A model generated the notes under the pieces. The model searched no databases and was not told the origin of the DNA. It saw nothing but the letters and a program-made list of their open reading frames with translations. A program made the position numbers and the translations under genes. This document shows, piece after piece, positions 24,472-31,372 of a stretch of DNA of 31,434 bases. This DNA is from Candidatus Heritagella caecorum (lineage in GTDB: Bacteria > Bacillota > Clostridia > Oscillospirales > Acutalibacteraceae), in contig CAJFQL010000026.1 in the NCBI GenBank assembly GCA_904419035.1, forward strand, positions 1 through 31,434, in the 5' to 3' direction. Position 1 is the first letter of the stretch; the number at the start of each line of letters is the position of its first letter.

Positions 24472-24512
24472 ATAAAAAACAGGAGGTCCAAAAAAGACCT
24501 CCTGTTTTTTTA
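24472..24512. terminator. bidirectional rho-independent terminator ending the TIR/SPFH operon
   Basis: AGGAGGTC-CAAAAAA-GACCTCCT forms a perfect 8-bp stem. It is flanked by AAAAAAC on one side and GTTTTTTTA on the other. Confidence 0.65.
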
Positions 24513-24617
24513 TTCCGGCTGTACCGCTTCGCGCCGGATGCCAAAAACACGGCGCAGCAAAAAGCCCACAAGACCTTTCCCCCGAACCACGACCACTTTC
24601 ATGCCGAAGCACTCCTT

Positions 24618-24782
24618 TCAGCGGTGGGCCAATGTAAAGCCCATGGCTACAATGATGACCGCTGCCAAAAACAGCGTGAGCCCATACGGACAAAAACAGG
24701 AAAGGGTCAGCCCCAAACCAAACGCCGTGGCCCAACGGCCGCACCGGCGGCACACCGGGCGGGGCACACAGTGTTGTTTCAT
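24618..24782 (-). CDS. small Cys-rich membrane peptide (54 aa; below the ORF-track cutoff)
   Basis: Translation by eye gives MKQHCVPRPVCRRCGRWATAFGLGLTLSCFCPYGLTLFLAAVIIVAMGFTLAHR. The ATG is preceded by AAAGGGGG 7 nt upstream. The peptide has an N-terminal CxxxxxCxxC and a C-terminal TM helix, and it is the last gene before the terminator. Coordinates are +/-1 nt. Confidence 0.35.
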   Translation of the reverse strand: MKQHCVPRPVCRRCGRWATAFGLGLTLSCFCPYGLTLFLAAVIIVAMGFTLAHR

Positions 24783-24845: not shown

Positions 24846-26687
24846 TTATACCCGTACGGTCACGGGATTTTGCACTTCATGGCCAATAAACGCCCAGGCG
24901 TTGCTATACTGGCCGCTACGCACTTCATTTTTCAAATTTGCGCACTGCTTTTTCAGATTCACTACCTGCTGCGCCAACTCTGTCAGCTTCCTGTCCTGTT
25001 GCTCATAAAACTGGATCATTTGATCCATTTCACCCTGTACAGACCGGCACTGAGAAAAAATCGTGCGCAGGGTGGAAGCGTCCTGGCTGTTCTGGCAGTA
25101 ATTTAAGTATGCATTGAGCGCATCGTCCAACGCTTTGCGCTGCTGCTGCAAAGTGCCCAGCATGTTGTAAGCCACGGGAATTTCCTTTTGCTGGTTAAAC
25201 TGATTCACCGACAGGTTGTACTGGTTCTGCAAATTGTTCATCTGGGTGCGCAAAGTCTGGGACTGGGCTGTCACTTTCTGCATCTGCTGCTGCATGGCAG
25301 TTAACTTCTGCTGCATGCTCTGCCCGATGTTTTGAACCTCCGGCGCCCGCTTTTTCATGTTTTCTTCGATGGCCCCGGCTTTTTGCAGGAAATTTTCGTC
25401 ACGGAGCTGACGGCTCAATGCCTGGTCCAGCATACGGCACACCGACTGGATCCATTCGTCAATGGCCGTATTCACAGCCTGGTACGCCTTTTTCAGATCC
25501 GGTGACGCAAACCGGATGGCGTTTTTATAGGCGATTTCGCCGCTGATTTGTTGGCCCTTGCGGATCATTTCATCGGCTGTGCGGCACTTCAGCTTGCACA
25601 GTAGCTGGCCCCAATAGGCCTGTGCATTTTCGGGGTCTTTATCCAGCACGCGGTTATAATAAGTGGCGGCGTCGGAAAGCTGGCCGTTATCCAGGAAAAT
25701 GTCGGCCCGTTTGAGCAAACTGCGGGCTTCCTGCTGCATCACACTGCCCGCTGAAACGGCAGCAGCCGCGGCGGCCGGTTGGGTGGTTTTCCCGTTTTTC
25801 GCATTGACCAATTTTTGGACATATTCAATCAGCTGCAGTTCGCCGACAGGCGTACCCATATTGACAGCCTGCAACGACGACAGTTCCCGGGGCAAATCCA
25901 TATCAGGCAACAAATCCCAGTACGCCGGGATCAGTGTTTTTTCTTCGCCGTTATTGATCAGTTCCAAATACCGCGCCCATTCGTTCTTCACCCAGGGCGC
26001 CGTAAAGTATTCCGGTTTGGAGCCCATCAGCACCATCACCCGGGACGTGTGCAGCGCCGAAAAGATGATGGGTTCGTAATTTTTCCCCAGGGGCAGGGAT
26101 TCCGGGGCATAGAAGGTGCGAATCCCCTTGGCCGTCAATTTTTCATACAGCGAGCGGGCCCGGAAGCTATCCAGGGTACGTTCGCCGTTATCCTGCTCCT
26201 TATAGCTGATAAACACATCATATTTTTCCTGCTTGGCCGCAATGGAGAGAATCTCCTGCATAATGGTGTTGATCTCCTGGGCCTGGGCTTCGTAACGGCC
26301 CTTAGCGCCGGGTTCGGCCCGGCGGATGACCTCCTGAAAATCGGGGTCATTTAAAATGGAACCATATTTGGCCCGGTGACAGGTGGGCACATACCGTCCG
26401 GTGGCCGGGTCTTTTACGTATTCAATACCGTATTTGCAAAGGAGCAGGCCCCAATATGCTTCGGCGTCGCCGCTGTCTTCCGCAATCACTTTTTCGTAAA
26501 CCGAAATGGCCCGGTCAAATTCGCTGTGCATACGCAGATCGTTGGCGCGGTTGTGCATGCTGATAAGCCGTTCGTCATGATCGTTTGGTAAATCCGAAAT
26601 CGAATCGCACGAATCGCACACCGCTGTCTTCCCGTCCGGGTTGGGGATCAAATTGCCGCCGCACATTTTGCATTTAAAAACTGCCAT
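24846..26687 (-). CDS. TIR-domain protein with N-terminal zinc ribbon, two TPR-like modules flanking the TIR, and a Q/N-rich C-terminal coiled coil
   Basis: The N-terminus has CKMCGG...CDSCDS. The TIR core motifs are YDVFISYKEQD ... SRVMVLMGS ... PWVKNEWARYLEL. Two repeated TPR-like units, AEAYWGLLLCKYG and AQAYWGQLLCKLKC, flank the TIR. The C-terminus is a QSMQQKLTAMQQQMQK...NNLQNQYN coiled coil. The ATG start has a GGAGGAAAGA RBS. Confidence 0.7.
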   Translation of the reverse strand: MAVFKCKMCGGNLIPNPDGKTAVCDSCDSISDLPNDHDERLISMHNRANDLRMHSEFDRAISVYEKVIAEDSGDAEAYWGLLLCKYGIEYVKDPATGRYVPTCHRAKYGSILNDPDFQEVIRRAEPGAKGRYEAQAQEINTIMQEILSIAAKQEKYDVFISYKEQDNGERTLDSFRARSLYEKLTAKGIRTFYAPESLPLGKNYEPIIFSALHTSRVMVLMGSKPEYFTAPWVKNEWARYLELINNGEEKTLIPAYWDLLPDMDLPRELSSLQAVNMGTPVGELQLIEYVQKLVNAKNGKTTQPAAAAAAVSAGSVMQQEARSLLKRADIFLDNGQLSDAATYYNRVLDKDPENAQAYWGQLLCKLKCRTADEMIRKGQQISGEIAYKNAIRFASPDLKKAYQAVNTAIDEWIQSVCRMLDQALSRQLRDENFLQKAGAIEENMKKRAPEVQNIGQSMQQKLTAMQQQMQKVTAQSQTLRTQMNNLQNQYNLSVNQFNQQKEIPVAYNMLGTLQQQRKALDDALNAYLNYCQNSQDASTLRTIFSQCRSVQGEMDQMIQFYEQQDRKLTELAQQVVNLKKQCANLKNEVRSGQYSNAWAFIGHEVQNPVTVRV

Positions 26688-26702: not shown

Positions 26703-27404
26703 TTATTTCAGGATCTTGCACTTCATGTTGCGCTCTTTGAGCTGGTTGCGCACCAGTACACAGGCCTGCCAGGCTTCGGTCTCCCGTCCGGCCCGCACAC
26801 AGGAGCCGATATAGGCAATCCGCTCCGCAATAAACTGTTCCAGCGACGAAAGCGCTTCGTGGCTCATGGGGTCGCTATAGCGCAAATCTTCCGCCAGCGA
26901 CAGCATTTCCTTTTTGACCGTCTCATCTTTCACGCTCAGGGCATACCCCTGCACATCGGTCATCAAATTGCGCACAAAAAAGACCTTTTGGTTTTCGGTC
27001 TCTTCCATTTTTTCGGCGTGATCTTTGGCGATCAGCCCCGAAATCAGGAAGATCACTTCCACCGCCAAAATCAGGATTTGAATAATAAACGCCAGTTTTA
27101 CATCGCAAGCGGGAATCAACATGATCACCGTACCAGCAATCAGTTCCACCACCAGGTACACTGCGGCGCTGCGGCTGATGGGATACCCCAAAAAGAGATC
27201 CCGGGGCCGGATCCCCTCACGGCCATAGGTCAGGCAGGTGACCAGAATCTGCATCAAAAACGCCACCAGCACAAAAATGTACGAACACCAGAACGACGGC
27301 GTCATCTGCCAGTTCCCGATGAGGACAAACAGAATCAGGTTGTAAACCAGAAAGCCGGTCAGCCATCCGACCGCCCCCAAGATATATTTCTTATCCACTT
27401 TCAT
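26703..27404 (-). CDS. 4-TM integral membrane protein with C-terminal cytoplasmic helical domain, function unknown
   Basis: 233-aa ORF with four hydrophobic helices in the first ~130 aa, followed by a charged helical C-terminal domain. The ATG start is preceded by GGAGGA and lies 15 nt upstream of the TIR gene. Confidence 0.5.
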   Translation of the reverse strand: MKVDKKYILGAVGWLTGFLVYNLILFVLIGNWQMTPSFWCSYIFVLVAFLMQILVTCLTYGREGIRPRDLFLGYPISRSAAVYLVVELIAGTVIMLIPACDVKLAFIIQILILAVEVIFLISGLIAKDHAEKMEETENQKVFFVRNLMTDVQGYALSVKDETVKKEMLSLAEDLRYSDPMSHEALSSLEQFIAERIAYIGSCVRAGRETEAWQACVLVRNQLKERNMKCKILK

Positions 27405-27456: not shown

Positions 27457-27987
27457 TTACGGTTCCGCTTTGTTTTGCAGCGCCGTTACCTCGCGCCGGA
27501 AGGCGTCCAGCCGCTGCTGTAAAGCGCCCTCGTAGTGATTTATTTGCTCCCAGCTTTTTTGCATGGAAGGGAGATACCCTTCAAACCGGTTCAGCGCATC
27601 GGCTTTTTGCAGCTTTTCGGTCATCTCAGCTTGGAACTGGAGTTCCTGTTCCCGCTCCGCTTCGTTTTTGGCCTGCTGACTAGCGAGACGCGCCGCCTTT
27701 TCGGCCGACGAGCCTTGCGCGATCCCCACGCACAAACCGATCACCGAACCGATCACCAATAAATAGAGGCCCGCCTGCATCAGCGCTTCATCACTGGGGA
27801 AGTACGTATCCAACGCATTCACCGCCATATCGCACACGCCAAATACGCAGCGTGTCCCGATGATGCCATCACAAGCATCGCCAAAACACTGGCCCAGCCC
27901 CAAGGCAAGCAAAATCACCAGCGTCCATACAACGGTATAGATGCACCCTTTTATCAGCCCTTTTATGGCGCCCGAAACCATTCTCAT
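27457..27987 (-). CDS. Cys-rich two-TM protein with cytoplasmic coiled coil (paralog A), function unknown
   Basis: 176-aa ORF organised as TM1, then a Cys-rich loop (GQCFGDACDG...RCVFGVCD), then TM2, then a coiled coil. Its ATG overlaps the stop of paralog B (ATGA). Confidence 0.5.
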   Translation of the reverse strand: MRMVSGAIKGLIKGCIYTVVWTLVILLALGLGQCFGDACDGIIGTRCVFGVCDMAVNALDTYFPSDEALMQAGLYLLVIGSVIGLCVGIAQGSSAEKAARLASQQAKNEAEREQELQFQAEMTEKLQKADALNRFEGYLPSMQKSWEQINHYEGALQQRLDAFRREVTALQNKAEP

Positions 27988-28505
27988 TGTGCGCTCCCGC
28001 CTTTCGGTGTGCCGCCTTGGCCTTTTTCGATCAGCTGCCGGATCTCACTCTGCAACACATGCAGGTGCTTGTCCGTTTCCCTCTGGTGGGCCATCATCGT
28101 CTCGTGGGTTTTGGAAAGCCCCGTACGGATTTTTACACTCTCATTAGGCATTTCACTACACTTTAATAGCGTTTCACGAATCGTACCTGCAAAATTTTCC
28201 TGGTTTCGGTGCTCGTCCTCCACCTGGTTCGACTGGATGTGCAAAATTTGCGCCTTTTGCTTGGAAACACCTGTCGCCATACCGATTAAGAACCCAAGCA
28301 CGGCCCCAATAATCCCGCCGTAGATGAAGGTACTGGCTGGCAATTGGTCAATTCCCCGGGTACAATCTCCCACGCAGTTATTCTCACCAATAAAGCAGGT
28401 ACACAGTTCTCCCACGCACCCCAAAATTCCAATGGCCAGCACCACAGCCAGCCCGGCGAGTGCGCCGATGAATATCCCGGCGATTGAATATTTTACGACT
28501 TGCAA
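27984..28505 (-). CDS. Cys-rich two-TM protein with cytoplasmic coiled coil (paralog B), function unknown
   Basis: 173-aa ORF with the same architecture as paralog A; its Cys-rich loop is GCVGELCTCFIGENNCVGDC. A TTG start at 28505 has GGAGGA 6 nt upstream and overlaps the lgt 3' end by 13 nt. Confidence 0.5.
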   Translation of the reverse strand: MQVVKYSIAGIFIGALAGLAVVLAIGILGCVGELCTCFIGENNCVGDCTRGIDQLPASTFIYGGIIGAVLGFLIGMATGVSKQKAQILHIQSNQVEDEHRNQENFAGTIRETLLKCSEMPNESVKIRTGLSKTHETMMAHQRETDKHLHVLQSEIRQLIEKGQGGTPKGGSAQ

Positions 28506-29308
28506 AATGATTCCTCCTCAGGTTTGGGGGCATGCCGTCCCCGGTATCGATACCAGCCGCCCCACAGGGCCAAAGCCACAAGCAGCCCCATGCTGACAAG
28601 CTGGCTAAAAGAAAATACCCCATACACGCCCCGTACCGCGTCGCCCCGCAAAAATTCCAGGCAGAACCGGCACACGGCGTAACTGGCCATATAGATAAAG
28701 ACCAATTGCCCCGAAAACCGCTTTTTTCGGTACAAAAGCAGCATACAAAGGCACAGCAGAAAAAGGCACACAGCTTCCAGCAGCTGTACCGGAAAGCACC
28801 ACCGTTCGCTGCCGTCCGGAAGGATATAATGCACCGCCAAAAAGCCGTGCCATTCCTTCCCATAACAACACCCGGCAAACAGGCACCCAAACCGGGCGAT
28901 CCCGTGAAACAGCGGGATCACGATGGCCAAGGTATCCATCTGCACCGTCAGGTGGGCAAAGGTCTGCCGGTGTTTGATAATCCAGCCCGTCACCAGCCGG
29001 TACACGAGCACAAAACCGAGCAGCCCTCCATACGCCACAAACGCGCTGCGTCGCACATCGGTAAAGGTCAGCGCCCGGCCTTCCTGCAGGCAATTGGCCA
29101 CTTCAACCAAAAAGCCGAAAAAACGCCCGCCCAGTAGCAGACCCAACGCGGCCAGCCCGAACTGCCATCCGAACCAGCGCAGGTCTTCGCTTTTTTTCAG
29201 CAGGACCGCCACAAACGGGATTAAGGCCGCCACAGTAGCGATTCCCGCAAAAAACAGGTACGGAGTCACGCCCGCGATGCGGGTGGTTTCGGTATAAACG
29301 GTGATCAT
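28493..29308 (-). CDS. lgt: prolipoprotein diacylglyceryl transferase
   Basis: About 271 aa from the ATG at 29308 (MITVYTE...), in an ATGA overlap with the SPFH gene stop. The protein is polytopic, with Lgt-like motifs ...HGIARFGCLFAGCCYG... and ...CRFCLEFLRGD... (the Lgt RxxExxRxD signature). The track's 27-aa N-terminal extension is unlikely. Confidence 0.6.
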   Translation of the reverse strand: MITVYTETTRIAGVTPYLFFAGIATVAALIPFVAVLLKKSEDLRWFGWQFGLAALGLLLGGRFFGFLVEVANCLQEGRALTFTDVRRSAFVAYGGLLGFVLVYRLVTGWIIKHRQTFAHLTVQMDTLAIVIPLFHGIARFGCLFAGCCYGKEWHGFLAVHYILPDGSERWCFPVQLLEAVCLFLLCLCMLLLYRKKRFSGQLVFIYMASYAVCRFCLEFLRGDAVRGVYGVFSFSQLVSMGLLVALALWGGWYRYRGRHAPKPEEESFCKS

Positions 29309-31179
29309 ACGCTCGGTTCCTGGCCATTCCCGGCATCCGGCGCCGCGGTGTCCACCGCTTGGGTCACAGCCGGGCGGGGGTTGCCGCATTCGTCACAGAA
29401 TTTGCCCCGGTTGCCGGTTTTGCCGCATACACAGTTCCAGGTGTCGTCCTTTTGCGGGCGGGGCTTACCGCAATTCTGGCAGAATTTGCCCCGGTTGCCT
29501 TTTTGCCCGCATTCACAGTCCCAGGTATCCTCTTTTTGTGGACGGGGCTTGCCGCAATTCTGGCAGAACTTGCCCCGGTTCCCCTTTTGGCCGCATTCAC
29601 AGTCCCAAGTATCCTCGGGCTGAGGCTGAGGCTTGCCGCAATTCTGACAGAATTTGCCCTGGTTCCCCTTTTGGCCGCATGCGCAATCCCATCCGGTTGT
29701 CAAAACCGGCGGCGTTTCGGTGAAGGTTTCCATCATGGGATTGAGCGCATCTTTTGTCATGTGGATCACACCGCCCATCATGCCAAGGCCCATGCCCAAA
29801 TTGGCAATATCGGCCATACCGCCGGCGCCGCCCGCCGATGAGTTGGTAGCGATACCCACGCCCACCTGCCGGGCCGTTTCCTGCTGGTAGGTATACCCTT
29901 TCATGCGCATCTCTTCCGCTTCGGCCTGGGCCTGCATGCGGTAGCTTTCCGCTTCGCCCTGGGCCCGCGCCACTTTCATGCGGGCTTCCGTTTCGGCGCG
30001 CAGCACCTGGCGTTCCATATCCACCTTTTCCCGTTCCAGCGCCGCCGTGCTGGTTTCTTTTTTGATCTGTTCTTCCCGCACATTCAGGAAGCGGTCGGCG
30101 TACTGCTGGCGCAGGCGGTTGAAGTTTTCGTCATCCGGCAGCACCACCGTGGTGACGAAAAATTCCGGCATTTCCAGGCCGTAATCGGCTAAGTATTCGT
30201 TCAGGCTCTTGCGCAGGCCTTCGGAAAGCAGCGCAAGCTGCTCGTCGATTTCCAGAATATTGATCTGGTTCTGCTTGATAATCTGGGGCAGGCGGCTTTT
30301 CACCTGGGTCAGGATCAGCGGCTTAAACGAAGCCTGGAACGACATCACGCCGCTGTCCTGGCTTTCCTGGCGCAGCCCCATGCTGGTGCCCACCATTTTC
30401 AGCACCAGTTTGCGGGAATCGATGACCCGCACATTGTATTGGCCGCTGGCCCCGATTTCAATATGCATCCCGGTGGCCGGGTCGAACAGCCGTACTTTGC
30501 TGTCGGTCCCCCAGCGCAAGCCCATTTGCACGGCCATATTGATAAAGTAGACTTCCGAATGGAAGGCGCCTTCGGTACCGGCCGGCAGCTTATAGAATTC
30601 ATTTAATATGGGCAGTTTTTCGGTTTCCAGCGTATACCGGCCCGCCGGGAACAGATCCAGCGCCCGCCCGTTGCGGAAGAGCAAAGCTTCCTGGGATTCA
30701 TGGACAATCAGCTGCGAACCCAAATTAAAATCTTCCAGCGGGTGTTTCCACACAAAAACCGTGTTGTCGCCTTCGTATTTGATCAAGCTGGCTACGCCCG
30801 CTTTGGCTACTTTGGCTTTTCCCAACTGCTGCTGTACATCCACCACCGTGTCGCACAGCGGACAGGTATACGTCGATGTACTGCGGTCTGCCGTCAGCGT
30901 ACAGGCGCAAGTCGGGCATGTGAACGAAACCACCGTTTTTCCGTCGCCCACGCTGAGCTTTTGTTTACATACCGGGCATACGGCGTTTTTCGCCTTCGAC
31001 TGGTCATACACAATGGTATTGCCGCAATGGGGGCACACCTTCGTCGTAACTTTATCCGTTTTTACATGGATGGTATACCCGCAGTCGCAGTCGATGGTCC
31101 TTTTTGTAAAGAAGAAAAACCTTTTTTGTGTCATATGATATTTGCCGCAGTTGGGGCACTCAATGACAAATCCCGCCAT
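29305..31179 (-). CDS. SPFH/band-7 (flotillin-/YdjI-like) domain protein with three N-terminal and four C-terminal zinc-ribbon modules
   Basis: The ATG at 31179 (MAGFVIECPNCGK...) has a GGAGAGGAG RBS. The N-terminus has three CxxC...CxC ribbons. The central SPFH domain reads GDNTVFVWKHP...LFRNGRALDLF...NVRVIDSRKLV. It is followed by an EA-rich coiled coil and a Gly/Met-rich linker, then four 28-aa repeats DCxCGQKGNxGKFCQNCGKPxPQ. The track's 41-aa 5' extension is unlikely. Confidence 0.7.
   Translation of the reverse strand: MAGFVIECPNCGKYHMTQKRFFFFTKRTIDCDCGYTIHVKTDKVTTKVCPHCGNTIVYDQSKAKNAVCPVCKQKLSVGDGKTVVSFTCPTCACTLTADRSTSTYTCPLCDTVVDVQQQLGKAKVAKAGVASLIKYEGDNTVFVWKHPLEDFNLGSQLIVHESQEALLFRNGRALDLFPAGRYTLETEKLPILNEFYKLPAGTEGAFHSEVYFINMAVQMGLRWGTDSKVRLFDPATGMHIEIGASGQYNVRVIDSRKLVLKMVGTSMGLRQESQDSGVMSFQASFKPLILTQVKSRLPQIIKQNQINILEIDEQLALLSEGLRKSLNEYLADYGLEMPEFFVTTVVLPDDENFNRLRQQYADRFLNVREEQIKKETSTAALEREKVDMERQVLRAETEARMKVARAQGEAESYRMQAQAEAEEMRMKGYTYQQETARQVGVGIATNSSAGGAGGMADIANLGMGLGMMGGVIHMTKDALNPMMETFTETPPVLTTGWDCACGQKGNQGKFCQNCGKPQPQPEDTWDCECGQKGNRGKFCQNCGKPRPQKEDTWDCECGQKGNRGKFCQNCGKPRPQKDDTWNCVCGKTGNRGKFCDECGNPRPAVTQAVDTAAPDAGNGQEPSV
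29360..29700 (-). repeat. four tandem ~84-bp direct repeats (coding; zinc-ribbon repeats of the SPFH protein C-terminus)
   Basis: The unit CTTGCCGCAATTCTGGCAGAATTTGCCCCGGTT... recurs four times with a period of ~84 nt and >85% identity. It encodes TWDCECGQKGNRGKFCQNCGKPRPQKED. Confidence 0.75.
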
Positions 31180-31372
31180 ATTCTTCTCCTCTCCCTTCTT
31201 TTCGATCCTGTTCTGCCCTTTTCCCGATTCTTTTCTATAGAAATTCGGATGGGAAGATTCCCGCTCTTTCATACAGGCTGCCGCTTTCATAAGGGCAGGC
31301 ATACTCTAATTATAATAGAAAAGGCTCCTGTATGACATGAACAGGTCCAGTAAAAACGGACAATAGACAAAG

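Follow-up and report, generated by a model that had tools for sequence, protein, structure and literature searches.

The prevailing view of Lgt is that of one housekeeping enzyme responsible for the lipidation of every lipobox protein. Two described systems lie close to the locus considered here. In Bacillus subtilis, YdjG and YdjH are both required for the membrane recruitment of the soluble SPFH protein YdjI (PMC8581546; bioRxiv 10.64898/2026.02.06.704340), and a dedicated lipidation has been predicted for Skillet-1 Lipocone proteins and their lipobox-like (G-S) substrates (Burroughs et al., eLife 2025, PMC12419801). We analyzed a stretch of 31,434 nucleotides from Candidatus Heritagella caecorum (assembly GCA_904419035.1, contig CAJFQL010000026.1; hereafter the window), in which two adjacent small genes, with products of 173 and 176 amino acids, stand in a row of six minus-strand genes that code, in this order, for an SPFH protein, an Lgt-like protein, the 173-residue protein, the 176-residue protein, a 233-residue transmembrane (TM) protein and a 613-residue TIR protein. 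Both small proteins belong to a hitherto undescribed family of small membrane proteins whose two TM segments form a hairpin (the 2TM family). In genomes, this family is obligately paired with one clade of Lgt proteins, the two genes being arranged head to tail.

The operon resembles pspA-ydjGHI in that a Band_7_1 SPFH protein devoid of TM segments, with a low-complexity stretch and C-terminal zinc finger(s) (YdjI, also called SamI), is co-encoded with two small integral membrane proteins (YdjG and YdjH, or SamG and SamH). It differs in having no PspA gene and in carrying instead an Lgt paralogue, the 233-residue TM protein and the TIR protein, and also because the cassette of Lgt and 2TM genes is found in SPFH-free operons. 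Furthermore, an indirect comparison through Pfam and NCBIfam models shows no sequence relationship to YdjG or YdjH, as the two small proteins and the 233-residue protein match none of these models (E≤0.1). The Skillet-1 case shares with our locus a dedicated membrane lipid transferase placed beside predicted non-canonical substrates in conflict-type neighbourhoods, and is the nearest concept that we found; in contrast to our locus, its enzyme belongs to the Lipocone superfamily and not to Lgt, the acceptor is Ser and not Cys, and the substrates are secreted domains and not 2TM hairpins, and it is likewise a prediction. The literature searched contained no description of the 2TM family, nor of an Lgt paralogue associated with SPFH, TIR, HerA or defence systems.

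Obligate genomic pairing of the 2TM family with one Lgt clade

The elements that join the Lgt-like gene and the two small genes are the following:

28493..29308, minus strand: Lgt-like gene (PF01790), 271 amino acids, with an ATG at 29308, an ATGA overlap with the stop of the SPFH gene and the motif R-F-G-C-L-F-A-G-C-C-Y-G
28512..28519, minus strand: Shine-Dalgarno sequence GAGGAGGA of the 173-residue gene, 6 nucleotides from the TTG and inside the 3' end of the Lgt-like gene; kept in the related locus L001
27984..28505, minus strand: gene of the 173-residue paralogue, the transcriptionally upstream copy, with a TTG start at 28505
27984..27987, minus strand: ATGA overlap of the TGA of the 173-residue gene with the ATG of the 176-residue gene, a translational coupling kept in L001
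27457..27987, minus strand: gene of the 176-residue paralogue, the transcriptionally downstream copy, with an ATG start

We recovered family members at about 19 distinct loci, and each one directly follows, and usually overlaps, an Lgt-like gene of one clade. This includes all six of the remote members found by profile search that could be placed in a locus: the genes of P0135, P0138, P0140, P0141 and P0143 come right after a PF01790 Lgt gene, in many cases with an overlap, and P0142 (L174) has a C-terminal Lgt fragment upstream, at the contig edge. For the reverse test we used 160 loci from genome and metagenome collections that carry Lgt genes with the motif C[LF][FT][AGS]GCCYG; these loci were picked by similarity to the Lgt of the window, and the presence of a downstream 2TM gene was scored with a heuristic backed by a hidden Markov model. 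Among the 168 Lgt open reading frames (ORFs) of this set, an ORF with the order TM, Cys, TM and tail follows only the 22 that scored best against the profile, and none of the approximately 145 others. Additionally, a neighbour-joining tree built from 151 distinct Lgt sequences, with E. coli Lgt as the root, groups the linked genes in a single clade with 23 members that is marked by four diagnostic substitutions, and a 2TM-Cys ORF follows Lgt in 22 of the 23 clade members versus 0 of 127 sequences outside the clade. Two loci (L110 and L099) were at first scored as negative, but in both an ORF of this kind begins before the contig breaks off; L015 is the one true exception within the clade, and the linkage in L095 was confirmed by eye. 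The strict coupling of the pair to the preceding Lgt-like gene, which had been overlooked in the first-pass annotation of this DNA, is the strongest functional lead.

The longest ORF of the Lgt-like gene reaches 29389 (298 amino acids) and would overlap the SPFH gene by 85 nucleotides. Since the relatives are called at 271 amino acids and an ATG is found at 29308, the SPFH, Lgt-like, 173-residue and 176-residue genes are connected by three consecutive overlapping junctions of 4, 13 and 4 nucleotides; the second of these, in which the 173-residue gene overlaps the stop of the Lgt-like gene, is an addition to the earlier description.

The paralogous pair and its family

The first-pass annotation had reported two adjacent ORFs of 176 and 173 residues with an identical domain order, fused by an ATGA, and had proposed a pairwise alignment of the products as a check. 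Both ORFs are present on the minus strand with the overlap between them, and the products align end to end (44 of 176 positions identical, 25%, E=4e-13), each with TM1, a Cys loop, TM2 and a hydrophilic helical tail by hydropathy. The TTG start and the GGAGGA ribosome-binding site (RBS) are also real, but they belong to the transcriptionally upstream 173-residue copy and not, as had been thought, to the downstream one. The co-expression proposed for the duplicated genes agrees with their translational coupling through the stop/start overlap; a relative with proteins 74-84% identical to these keeps the ATGA as well as the TTG start and the RBS. When compared to this relative, the ratio of nonsynonymous to synonymous substitution rates (dN/dS) is 0.18 and 0.15 for the two small genes, indicating that both are real and under purifying selection. 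Chance ORFs or a misannotation would be in line with their small size and their lack of annotation in Pfam and NCBIfam, and with nothing further; this explanation is refuted by the conservation data, because the relatives keep length, start, RBS and overlap, dN/dS is far below 1 and about 19 loci carry remote homologues at the same genomic position, so that we give it virtually no chance. Both small ORFs are real, constrained and co-translated paralogous genes. Their products are built as follows:

173-residue protein: basic N-terminus MQVVK, TM1 with GxxxG, Cys30 after ILG (lipobox-like), acidic loop with five Cys, glycine-zipper TM2 (IIGAVLGFLIGMATG) and helical cytoplasmic tail
176-residue protein: same architecture; loop Cys34, 39, 47 and 52; residue -1 to Cys34 Q, H or K, without a canonical lipobox

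Hydropathy places the hydrophobic segments at about residues 7-29 and 57-81 of the 173-residue protein and 12-32 and 68-93 of the 176-residue protein. The N-termini are basic, the loops have a net charge of -3 and -5 and the residues that follow TM2 are basic, which according to the positive-inside rule predicts a topology with the N-terminus inside, the loop outside and the C-terminus inside. In the alignment of both proteins with 14 close homologues (16 sequences), a C-x-G-x-x-C at the exit of TM1 (C34, G36, C39) is invariant, and so is the glycine zipper of TM2 (I79, G80, G84, G88, A90, G92). This defines how much of the previously described Cys pattern is kept. The motif GxCxGxxCxG is literal in the 176-residue protein (GQCFGDACDG), whereas the 173-residue protein has GCVGELCTC; the C-x-G-x-x-C spacing is common to the two proteins and invariant, but the later Cys are offset, with C-x7-C-x4-C in the 176-residue protein versus C-x-C-x7-C-x3-C in the 173-residue one. 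In the same way, conservation in homologues holds for C-x-G-x-x-C and fails for the last loop Cys of the 173-residue protein, which is replaced by Tyr in 3 of 10 homologue clusters (P0005-P0014).

The family had not been recognised in the first-pass annotation, in agreement with the lack of any meaningful match for either small protein in Pfam, NCBIfam, PADLOC and PHROGs. PHROGs returned no holin and one weak match of unknown function (E 0.0067), and PADLOC nothing except LeoB on the tail (E 0.011). A word-indexed search of 5.8 billion proteins recovered only relatives of at least 72% identity (4 clusters for the 176-residue protein and 10 clusters, at 72-98%, for the 173-residue one), and the remote members were reached only when 1.84 billion cluster representatives were searched exhaustively with an HMMER profile, which gave 11 proteins at E≤1e-3, 9 of which were new (P0135-P0143). 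The architecture is common to all the new matches but one, a spurious repeat protein. The 21 members compared all share a basic N-terminus (typically MKxxK), TM1, a Cys at its exit (position 27-36), a loop that is acidic in most cases, a TM2 carrying IIGAxxGxxxG and a charged helical tail. The loop varies from 7 to 123 residues, the number of Cys from 1 to 23 and the tail from about 90 to more than 550 residues, and the first Cys, at the TM1 exit, is the sole Cys that is invariant family-wide.

This variation bears on the earlier suggestion of a Cys cluster that binds metal or forms disulphides, which is weakened because Cys number, spacing and loop length all change across the family. In its full form, this explanation holds that the proteins are extracytoplasmic redox or metal sensors, whose Cys loops bind a metal or an iron-sulphur cluster or form disulphides and whose TM2 relays the state of the loop to the tail, Lgt being a structural partner only. 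A loop predicted to lie outside, four to five loop Cys in both paralogues with the invariant C-x-G-x-x-C, and the presence of at least three loop Cys in most members, with 23 in one of them, are all compatible with such a sensor, as is the GC...GCC motif of the partner Lgt clade itself. However, neither the number (1-23) nor the spacing of the Cys nor the loop length (7-123 residues) is conserved, a single loop Cys is found in L095 and two in L174b, and one loop Cys of the 173-residue protein is the residue exchanged for Tyr in some clusters. Furthermore, no metal-binding family in Pfam and no metal-binding structure in the PDB were matched, a PDB sequence search with the family profile giving only generic coiled-coil chains (E>0.05); Lgt proteins outside the linked clade have the GCC motif too, and the strict linkage to an Lgt that looks catalytically intact would be left unexplained. 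We therefore consider a sensor function unlikely.

Regarding the history of the pair, the same six-gene block is found in a relative of 74% identity (L001-L003), and in the next outgroup (Lgt 63% identical; L004, L005 and L012, 'Clostridia bacterium SUG159') one gene of 205 codons replaces the two. The closest outgroups (L004/L012, L008, L010 and L172) are single-copy, so the ancestral state functions without a second paralogue, which weakens the case for the obligate heterodimer proposed in the first-pass annotation. The 176-residue protein is the orthologue of the 205-residue single copy of the outgroup (42% identity over the 2TM region), and the 173-residue protein is equidistant from everything. 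Tandem 2TM paralogues, of 200 and 190 residues, also occur in L174/L175 (282-1501), between Lgt and a gene for a TIR protein with a Zn-ribbon and TPR; these copies share a near-identical tail segment, ANR[IT]E[VI]L[ND]AISEF[LM]NSSE, pointing to a recent duplication distinct from that in the window. Sequence comparison thus indicates that the 2TM gene was duplicated independently in at least two lineages, that of the window and that of L174. The 173/176 tandem pair probably forms a hetero-oligomer, and the tandem duplication in L174 is compatible with hetero-oligomers without being proof of them.

Operon contexts, the Lgt-like enzyme and a proposed function

The Lgt and 2TM cassette occurs in operons of several types. 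Type A combines an SPFH protein, a TM protein of 232, 233 or 241 residues, Lgt, the 2TM protein and a Zn-ribbon-TPR-TIR protein, and is represented by the window, L001, L004/L012, L010, L172 and L174; a search of related loci, as the first-pass annotation had advised, therefore finds the 2TM genes again beside SPFH and TIR genes. In L010 the SPFH and Zn-ribbon-TPR genes are cut by the contig ends and the TIR domain is not confirmed, and L008 probably belongs to this type as well, its 2.3-kb contig holding only Lgt, the 2TM gene and a gene like that of the 233-residue TM protein. L172 carries all five component types (its SPFH protein is 39% and its TM protein 32% identical to that of the window) and has the TM-protein gene upstream of Lgt; its Lgt and TIR proteins were assigned by Pfam and its 2TM protein is P0138. 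The TIR protein of L174 is a 37% identical orthologue of that of the window.

In type B, Lgt and the 2TM gene are followed by genes for a Zn-ribbon/TPR-like/coiled-coil protein of 336-378 residues and an FtsK-like ATPase (1095-1167 residues), then by those for an acidic protein of 159-163 residues and a protein of about 1330 residues with a HerA/FtsK-like P-loop. The FtsK_SpoIIIE-like ATPase has weak nSTAND1/NACHT similarity. The full set is found in L006/7, L094 and L178; L176 has an FtsK of 1095 residues followed by genes for 163 and 242 residues, and L092 has Lgt, the 2TM gene, a Zn-ribbon protein of 378 residues and an unannotated ORF of 868 codons that runs off the contig end. L094 and L176 adjoin integrase genes, L178 adjoins RepA_N, and L176 and L178 adjoin helix-turn-helix (HTH) genes, so that the type B operon looks like a system borne by mobile elements. 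In type C (L095-L097, L111 and L099) the 2TM module has a fused cytoplasmic part longer than 550 residues, giving proteins of 621-631 residues, and the upstream genes code for HerA-like ATPases (741-877 residues), a coiled-coil protein of 161-166 residues and small acidic proteins; the member in L095 has its sole loop Cys in LFGS-C. Type D comes from the metagenome-assembled genome (MAG) Treponema sp. MAG RGIG9108 (L013 7959-12743), where a member of 230 residues has a loop of 123 residues with 23 Cys and is flanked by the linked Lgt, a TPR/coiled-coil protein of 658 residues, a Zn-ribbon protein of 862 residues with at least two AAA+ ATPase domains (three AAA stretches in Pfam) and a Zn-ribbon protein of 241 residues.

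Where the gene directly after the 2TM gene could be seen (L006, L010, L013, L092, L094 and L174), it codes for a Zn-ribbon/TPR-like/coiled-coil protein, and in the window such a protein is encoded after the 233-residue gene. The motif [AT]YW-x-LL-x(2,4)-C is present twice in the TIR protein of the window (24846-26687) and also in L006 (2538-3563), L174 (1498-2682) and L010 (2815-4293), and the type B Zn-ribbon protein shares the YWxxLL...C TPR module with the TIR protein of the window (E 3e-4). This N-terminal Zn-ribbon and TPR-like module may read the tail of the 2TM protein.

The Lgt-like protein of the window matches PF01790 with 84.4 bits versus a cut-off of 24.9, but misses the equivalog cut-offs of NCBIfam (NF000778, 99 bits versus 334; TIGR00544, 54 versus 118.9), and phmmer found no Lgt structure in the PDB at E≤0.01. 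Its gene has a dN/dS of 0.058. Residue mapping indicates that, as in the canonical Lgt pathway, it keeps the equivalents of E. coli Y26, R143, G154, Y235, R239, E243 and R246, and that it differs from canonical Lgt by H103Y, N146C and E151C. We take R143 and R239 to be essential in the E. coli enzyme, and also Y26, G154, Y235 and E243, and N146, E151 and H103. The three substitutions occur in all of the best 120 homologues and in Lgt genes with housekeeping-like neighbours from many phyla; the comparison thus marks them as a lineage variant, and not as a sign of inactivation or specialisation, and they probably do not abolish activity. The GCC-variant Lgt (R-x-G-C-x3-G-C-C-Y-G) is widespread, in more than 580 species, with more than 580 confirmed matches in each of the scans of genomes and metagenomes (L012-L171), and it was found in Clostridia, Nitrospirota, Acidobacteriota, Bacteroidota and Spirochaetes, in many cases beside rluD-like and rsmI-like genes as judged by eye. 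The MAG CALWSG01 (L014, L062) has two GCC-variant Lgt genes.

The small proteins begin with a layout like that of prolipoproteins. Both have a Cys within residues 15-35 that follows a basic n-region and an uncharged hydrophobic stretch (K5 and Cys30 in the 173-residue protein; R2, K9, K13 and Cys34 in the 176-residue one), and this layout is shared by the 21 members, with the Cys at 27-36. The lipobox of lipoprotein precursors (PROSITE PS00013/PS51257) is [LVI][ASTVI][GAS]-C, with a small residue at -1; a PS00013-type pattern is passed by the 173-residue protein (I-L-G-C30) and failed by the 176-residue one (L-G-Q-C34). The small proteins differ from classical prolipoproteins in that the residue at -1 is often not G, A or S and that the length of the hydrophobic stretch would allow it to remain as a TM helix, and from the canonical pathway in that the putative substrate, which possesses a further TM helix and a cytoplasmic tail, is encoded beside a dedicated enzyme.

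The explanation that we favour, which we hold tentatively and at somewhat less than an even chance, is that the small proteins are membrane adaptors, obligate partners and probably S-diacylglyceryl substrates of the dedicated Lgt paralogue, which tether the SPFH and TIR proteins. The Lgt paralogue would act on the 2TM proteins or form a complex with them, and the likeliest reaction would be a diacylglyceryl transfer to the Cys at the membrane interface (Cys30 in the 173-residue protein and Cys34 in the 176-residue one). The lipidated hairpins could then oligomerise via their GxxxG and glycine-zipper helices, as a 173/176 hetero-oligomer in the lineage of the window, and their cytoplasmic helical tails could dock the soluble Zn-ribbon SPFH and Zn-ribbon-TPR-TIR-coiled-coil proteins at the membrane, by analogy with the recruitment of YdjI by YdjG and YdjH. 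In such a scheme, the six-gene operon would couple a membrane or envelope signal to a TIR (NADase-type) output and would work as a membrane-linked defence or stress module. The invariant Cys at the position of a lipobox Cys, the competent-looking enzyme and the translational coupling argue for an enzyme-substrate or obligate-complex relationship, and the conservation of the 2TM module while the tails vary supports an adaptor role. The linkage suggests, but does not prove, that a defence or stress system linked to the membrane includes protein lipidation as a dedicated step, and the role of this system may lie in defence, through a TIR NADase, or in the envelope-stress response.

Several observations weigh against this proposal. 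The residue at -1 to the first Cys is G, A or S in only about 10 of 21 members, and a PROSITE-type lipobox rule is passed by 4 of 17 lineages (the 173-residue, L004, L008 and L006 proteins) and not by the 176-residue protein; a canonical lipobox was accordingly rejected as the rule that defines the family. H103, N146 and E151 are changed in the enzyme, and the GC...GCC motif was rejected as the mark of a special Lgt, since it is found in so many species and often by housekeeping-like genes. AlphaFold2 models built from the 16-sequence alignments have TM1, TM2 and long C-terminal helices at an overall pLDDT of 52.6 and 42.3, with the Cys loop unmodelled and the last 60 residues of the tail at 57-83 in the 176-residue protein and below 60 in the 173-residue one; at this low confidence, the models lend no structural support to the loop structure or the coiled coil. 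With respect to a defence role, only the TIR protein was matched in PADLOC-DB 2.0, weakly (PDC-S66, 7.8e-9; ThsB, 7.2e-6), and the operon is set among housekeeping genes. Finally, the cassette is also found in operons that have neither SPFH nor TIR, so that the anchoring targets must differ between systems.

The TIR neighbour brings the small proteins close to the two-TM effectors of TIR, CBASS and Pycsar systems (for example of the SLATT type) and to class II holins, which are likewise small hairpins with both ends inside and with oligomerisation motifs. They could in this case be holin-like pore effectors, with the glycine-zipper hairpins oligomerising into a membrane lesion upon a trigger given by the TIR product or the partner ATPases, in the manner of the TM effectors of Thoeris, CBASS and Pycsar. 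Two TM helices with GxxxG and a glycine zipper, a charged tail, a weak match to Gly-zipper_YMGG in Pfam and a co-operonic TIR with a putative catalytic Glu would all suit a pore, and TIR systems with TM effectors are common (bioRxiv 10.64898/2025.12.03.692087). However, the proteins matched no holin in PHROGs, no effector in PADLOC and no TM-effector family in Pfam, their tails are long, helical and variable, some of more than 550 residues, which suits adaptors better than minimal pore formers, and the cassette is equally present in TIR-less systems, where the 2TM gene is still paired with Lgt; a pore leaves this constant presence of the Lgt paralogue unexplained, and we find it improbable.

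A further alternative makes the Lgt-like enzyme itself the effector, which would lipidate foreign proteins of a phage or competitor or consume phosphatidylglycerol, while the hairpins regulate it and gate the lateral entry of substrate. The integrase, RepA_N and HTH genes that adjoin some cassettes, suggesting mobile-element conflict systems, and the strict one-to-one linkage with translational coupling, as in enzyme-regulator pairs, go in this direction, together with the retained catalytic residues and the clade-specific substitutions. Selection on the genes is however ordinary (0.058 for Lgt and 0.15-0.18 for the small genes), the literature searched offers no precedent, and regulator and substrate are indistinguishable with the present data; we judge an effector Lgt to be quite improbable.

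Returning to the adaptor and lipidation proposal, an Lgt clade genomically locked to one hairpin protein would be the first hint of a private enzyme-substrate or enzyme-partner pair in the Lgt family. If true, it would connect the lipidation of proteins with immunity in bacteria or with envelope-stress signalling, provide a candidate for the membrane positioning of soluble Band_7_1 SPFH and TIR proteins in Clostridia, and define a new, easily testable protein family that comes down to one Cys and one enzyme. What the locus does is to combine known kinds, namely SPFH-anchor operons, TIR systems and Lgt-lipobox chemistry, around a new protein family. It is possible, but doubtful, that dedicated lipidation by an Lgt paralogue is the conserved core of unrecognised membrane-associated conflict or defence systems, with an uncleaved 2TM adaptor, heteromeric in the case of 173/176, that would organise Zn-ribbon/TPR proteins with interchangeable outputs (SPFH and TIR NADase, FtsK/HerA ATPases, or AAA+ ATPases); that private protein lipidation at the core of conflict systems amounts to a new principle seems to us unlikely to the same degree.

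The other genes of the operon and its surroundings

The remaining elements of the operon are:

31309..31338, minus strand: sigma-70-like promoter match ATGTCA-18-TATAAT, 5' of the SPFH gene; candidate operon promoter from a consensus scan
29305..31302, minus strand: SPFH protein (Band_7_1, 2.5e-36) with N-terminal Zn ribbons, a Gly-rich low-complexity stretch and four C-terminal Zn-finger repeats
26703..27404, minus strand: polytopic membrane protein of 233 amino acids with a helical C-terminal domain, without a family assignment in Pfam and NCBIfam
24846..26687, minus strand: soluble protein of 613 amino acids with an N-terminal Zn ribbon, a TPR-like region (YWxLLLC), a TIR domain, a second TPR and a long C-terminal coiled coil

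The longest ORF of the SPFH gene is probably over-extended, its likely true start being the ATG at 31179 with the RBS GGAGAGGAG. The N-terminal part of the protein has at least two CxxC...CxxC ribbons (residues 90-150), and the C-terminus (29377-29691, minus strand) consists of four tandem repeats of 28 residues, each one a WDCxCGxxGNxGKFCxxCGxP zinc finger. Hydropathy gave no TM segment for the SPFH protein (maximum 19-residue value 1.19), and none was found in the TIR protein. The TIR domain aligns with plant TIRs and has Glu236 in WVKNEW, which we take to be the position of the catalytic Glu. The gene of the 233-residue protein has a dN/dS of 0.045 and is a conserved part of the SPFH/TIR-type operons. 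The SPFH, Lgt, 233-residue and both small proteins were without a match in PADLOC-DB 2.0, and a scan for terminator-like sites with a T-run found none between the six minus-strand genes.

The rest of the window (1-22834) carries minus-strand housekeeping genes, among them those for Hsp33, a methyltransferase, an Orn/DAP decarboxylase, Lon, ClpX, trigger factor and threonine synthase, and further ones for an M19 dipeptidase, a GTPase, a radical SAM protein, SpoIVA, Ldh and SipL. This places the operon in the core chromosome of a sporulating member of the Clostridia, and not in an obvious island. In relatives, a DUF4317 gene is the upstream neighbour. Just 3' of the TIR gene, 24618-24782 (minus strand) codes for a Cys-rich protein of 54 residues with one TM segment (MKQHCVPRPVCRRCGRW...), and 24510-24602 (minus strand) for a peptide of 30 residues (MKVVVVRGKGLVGFLLRRVFGIRREAVQPE) that resembles SpoVM, followed by a hairpin and T-run terminator at 24480-24510. 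Both of these small ORFs are called in L001 and L003 too.

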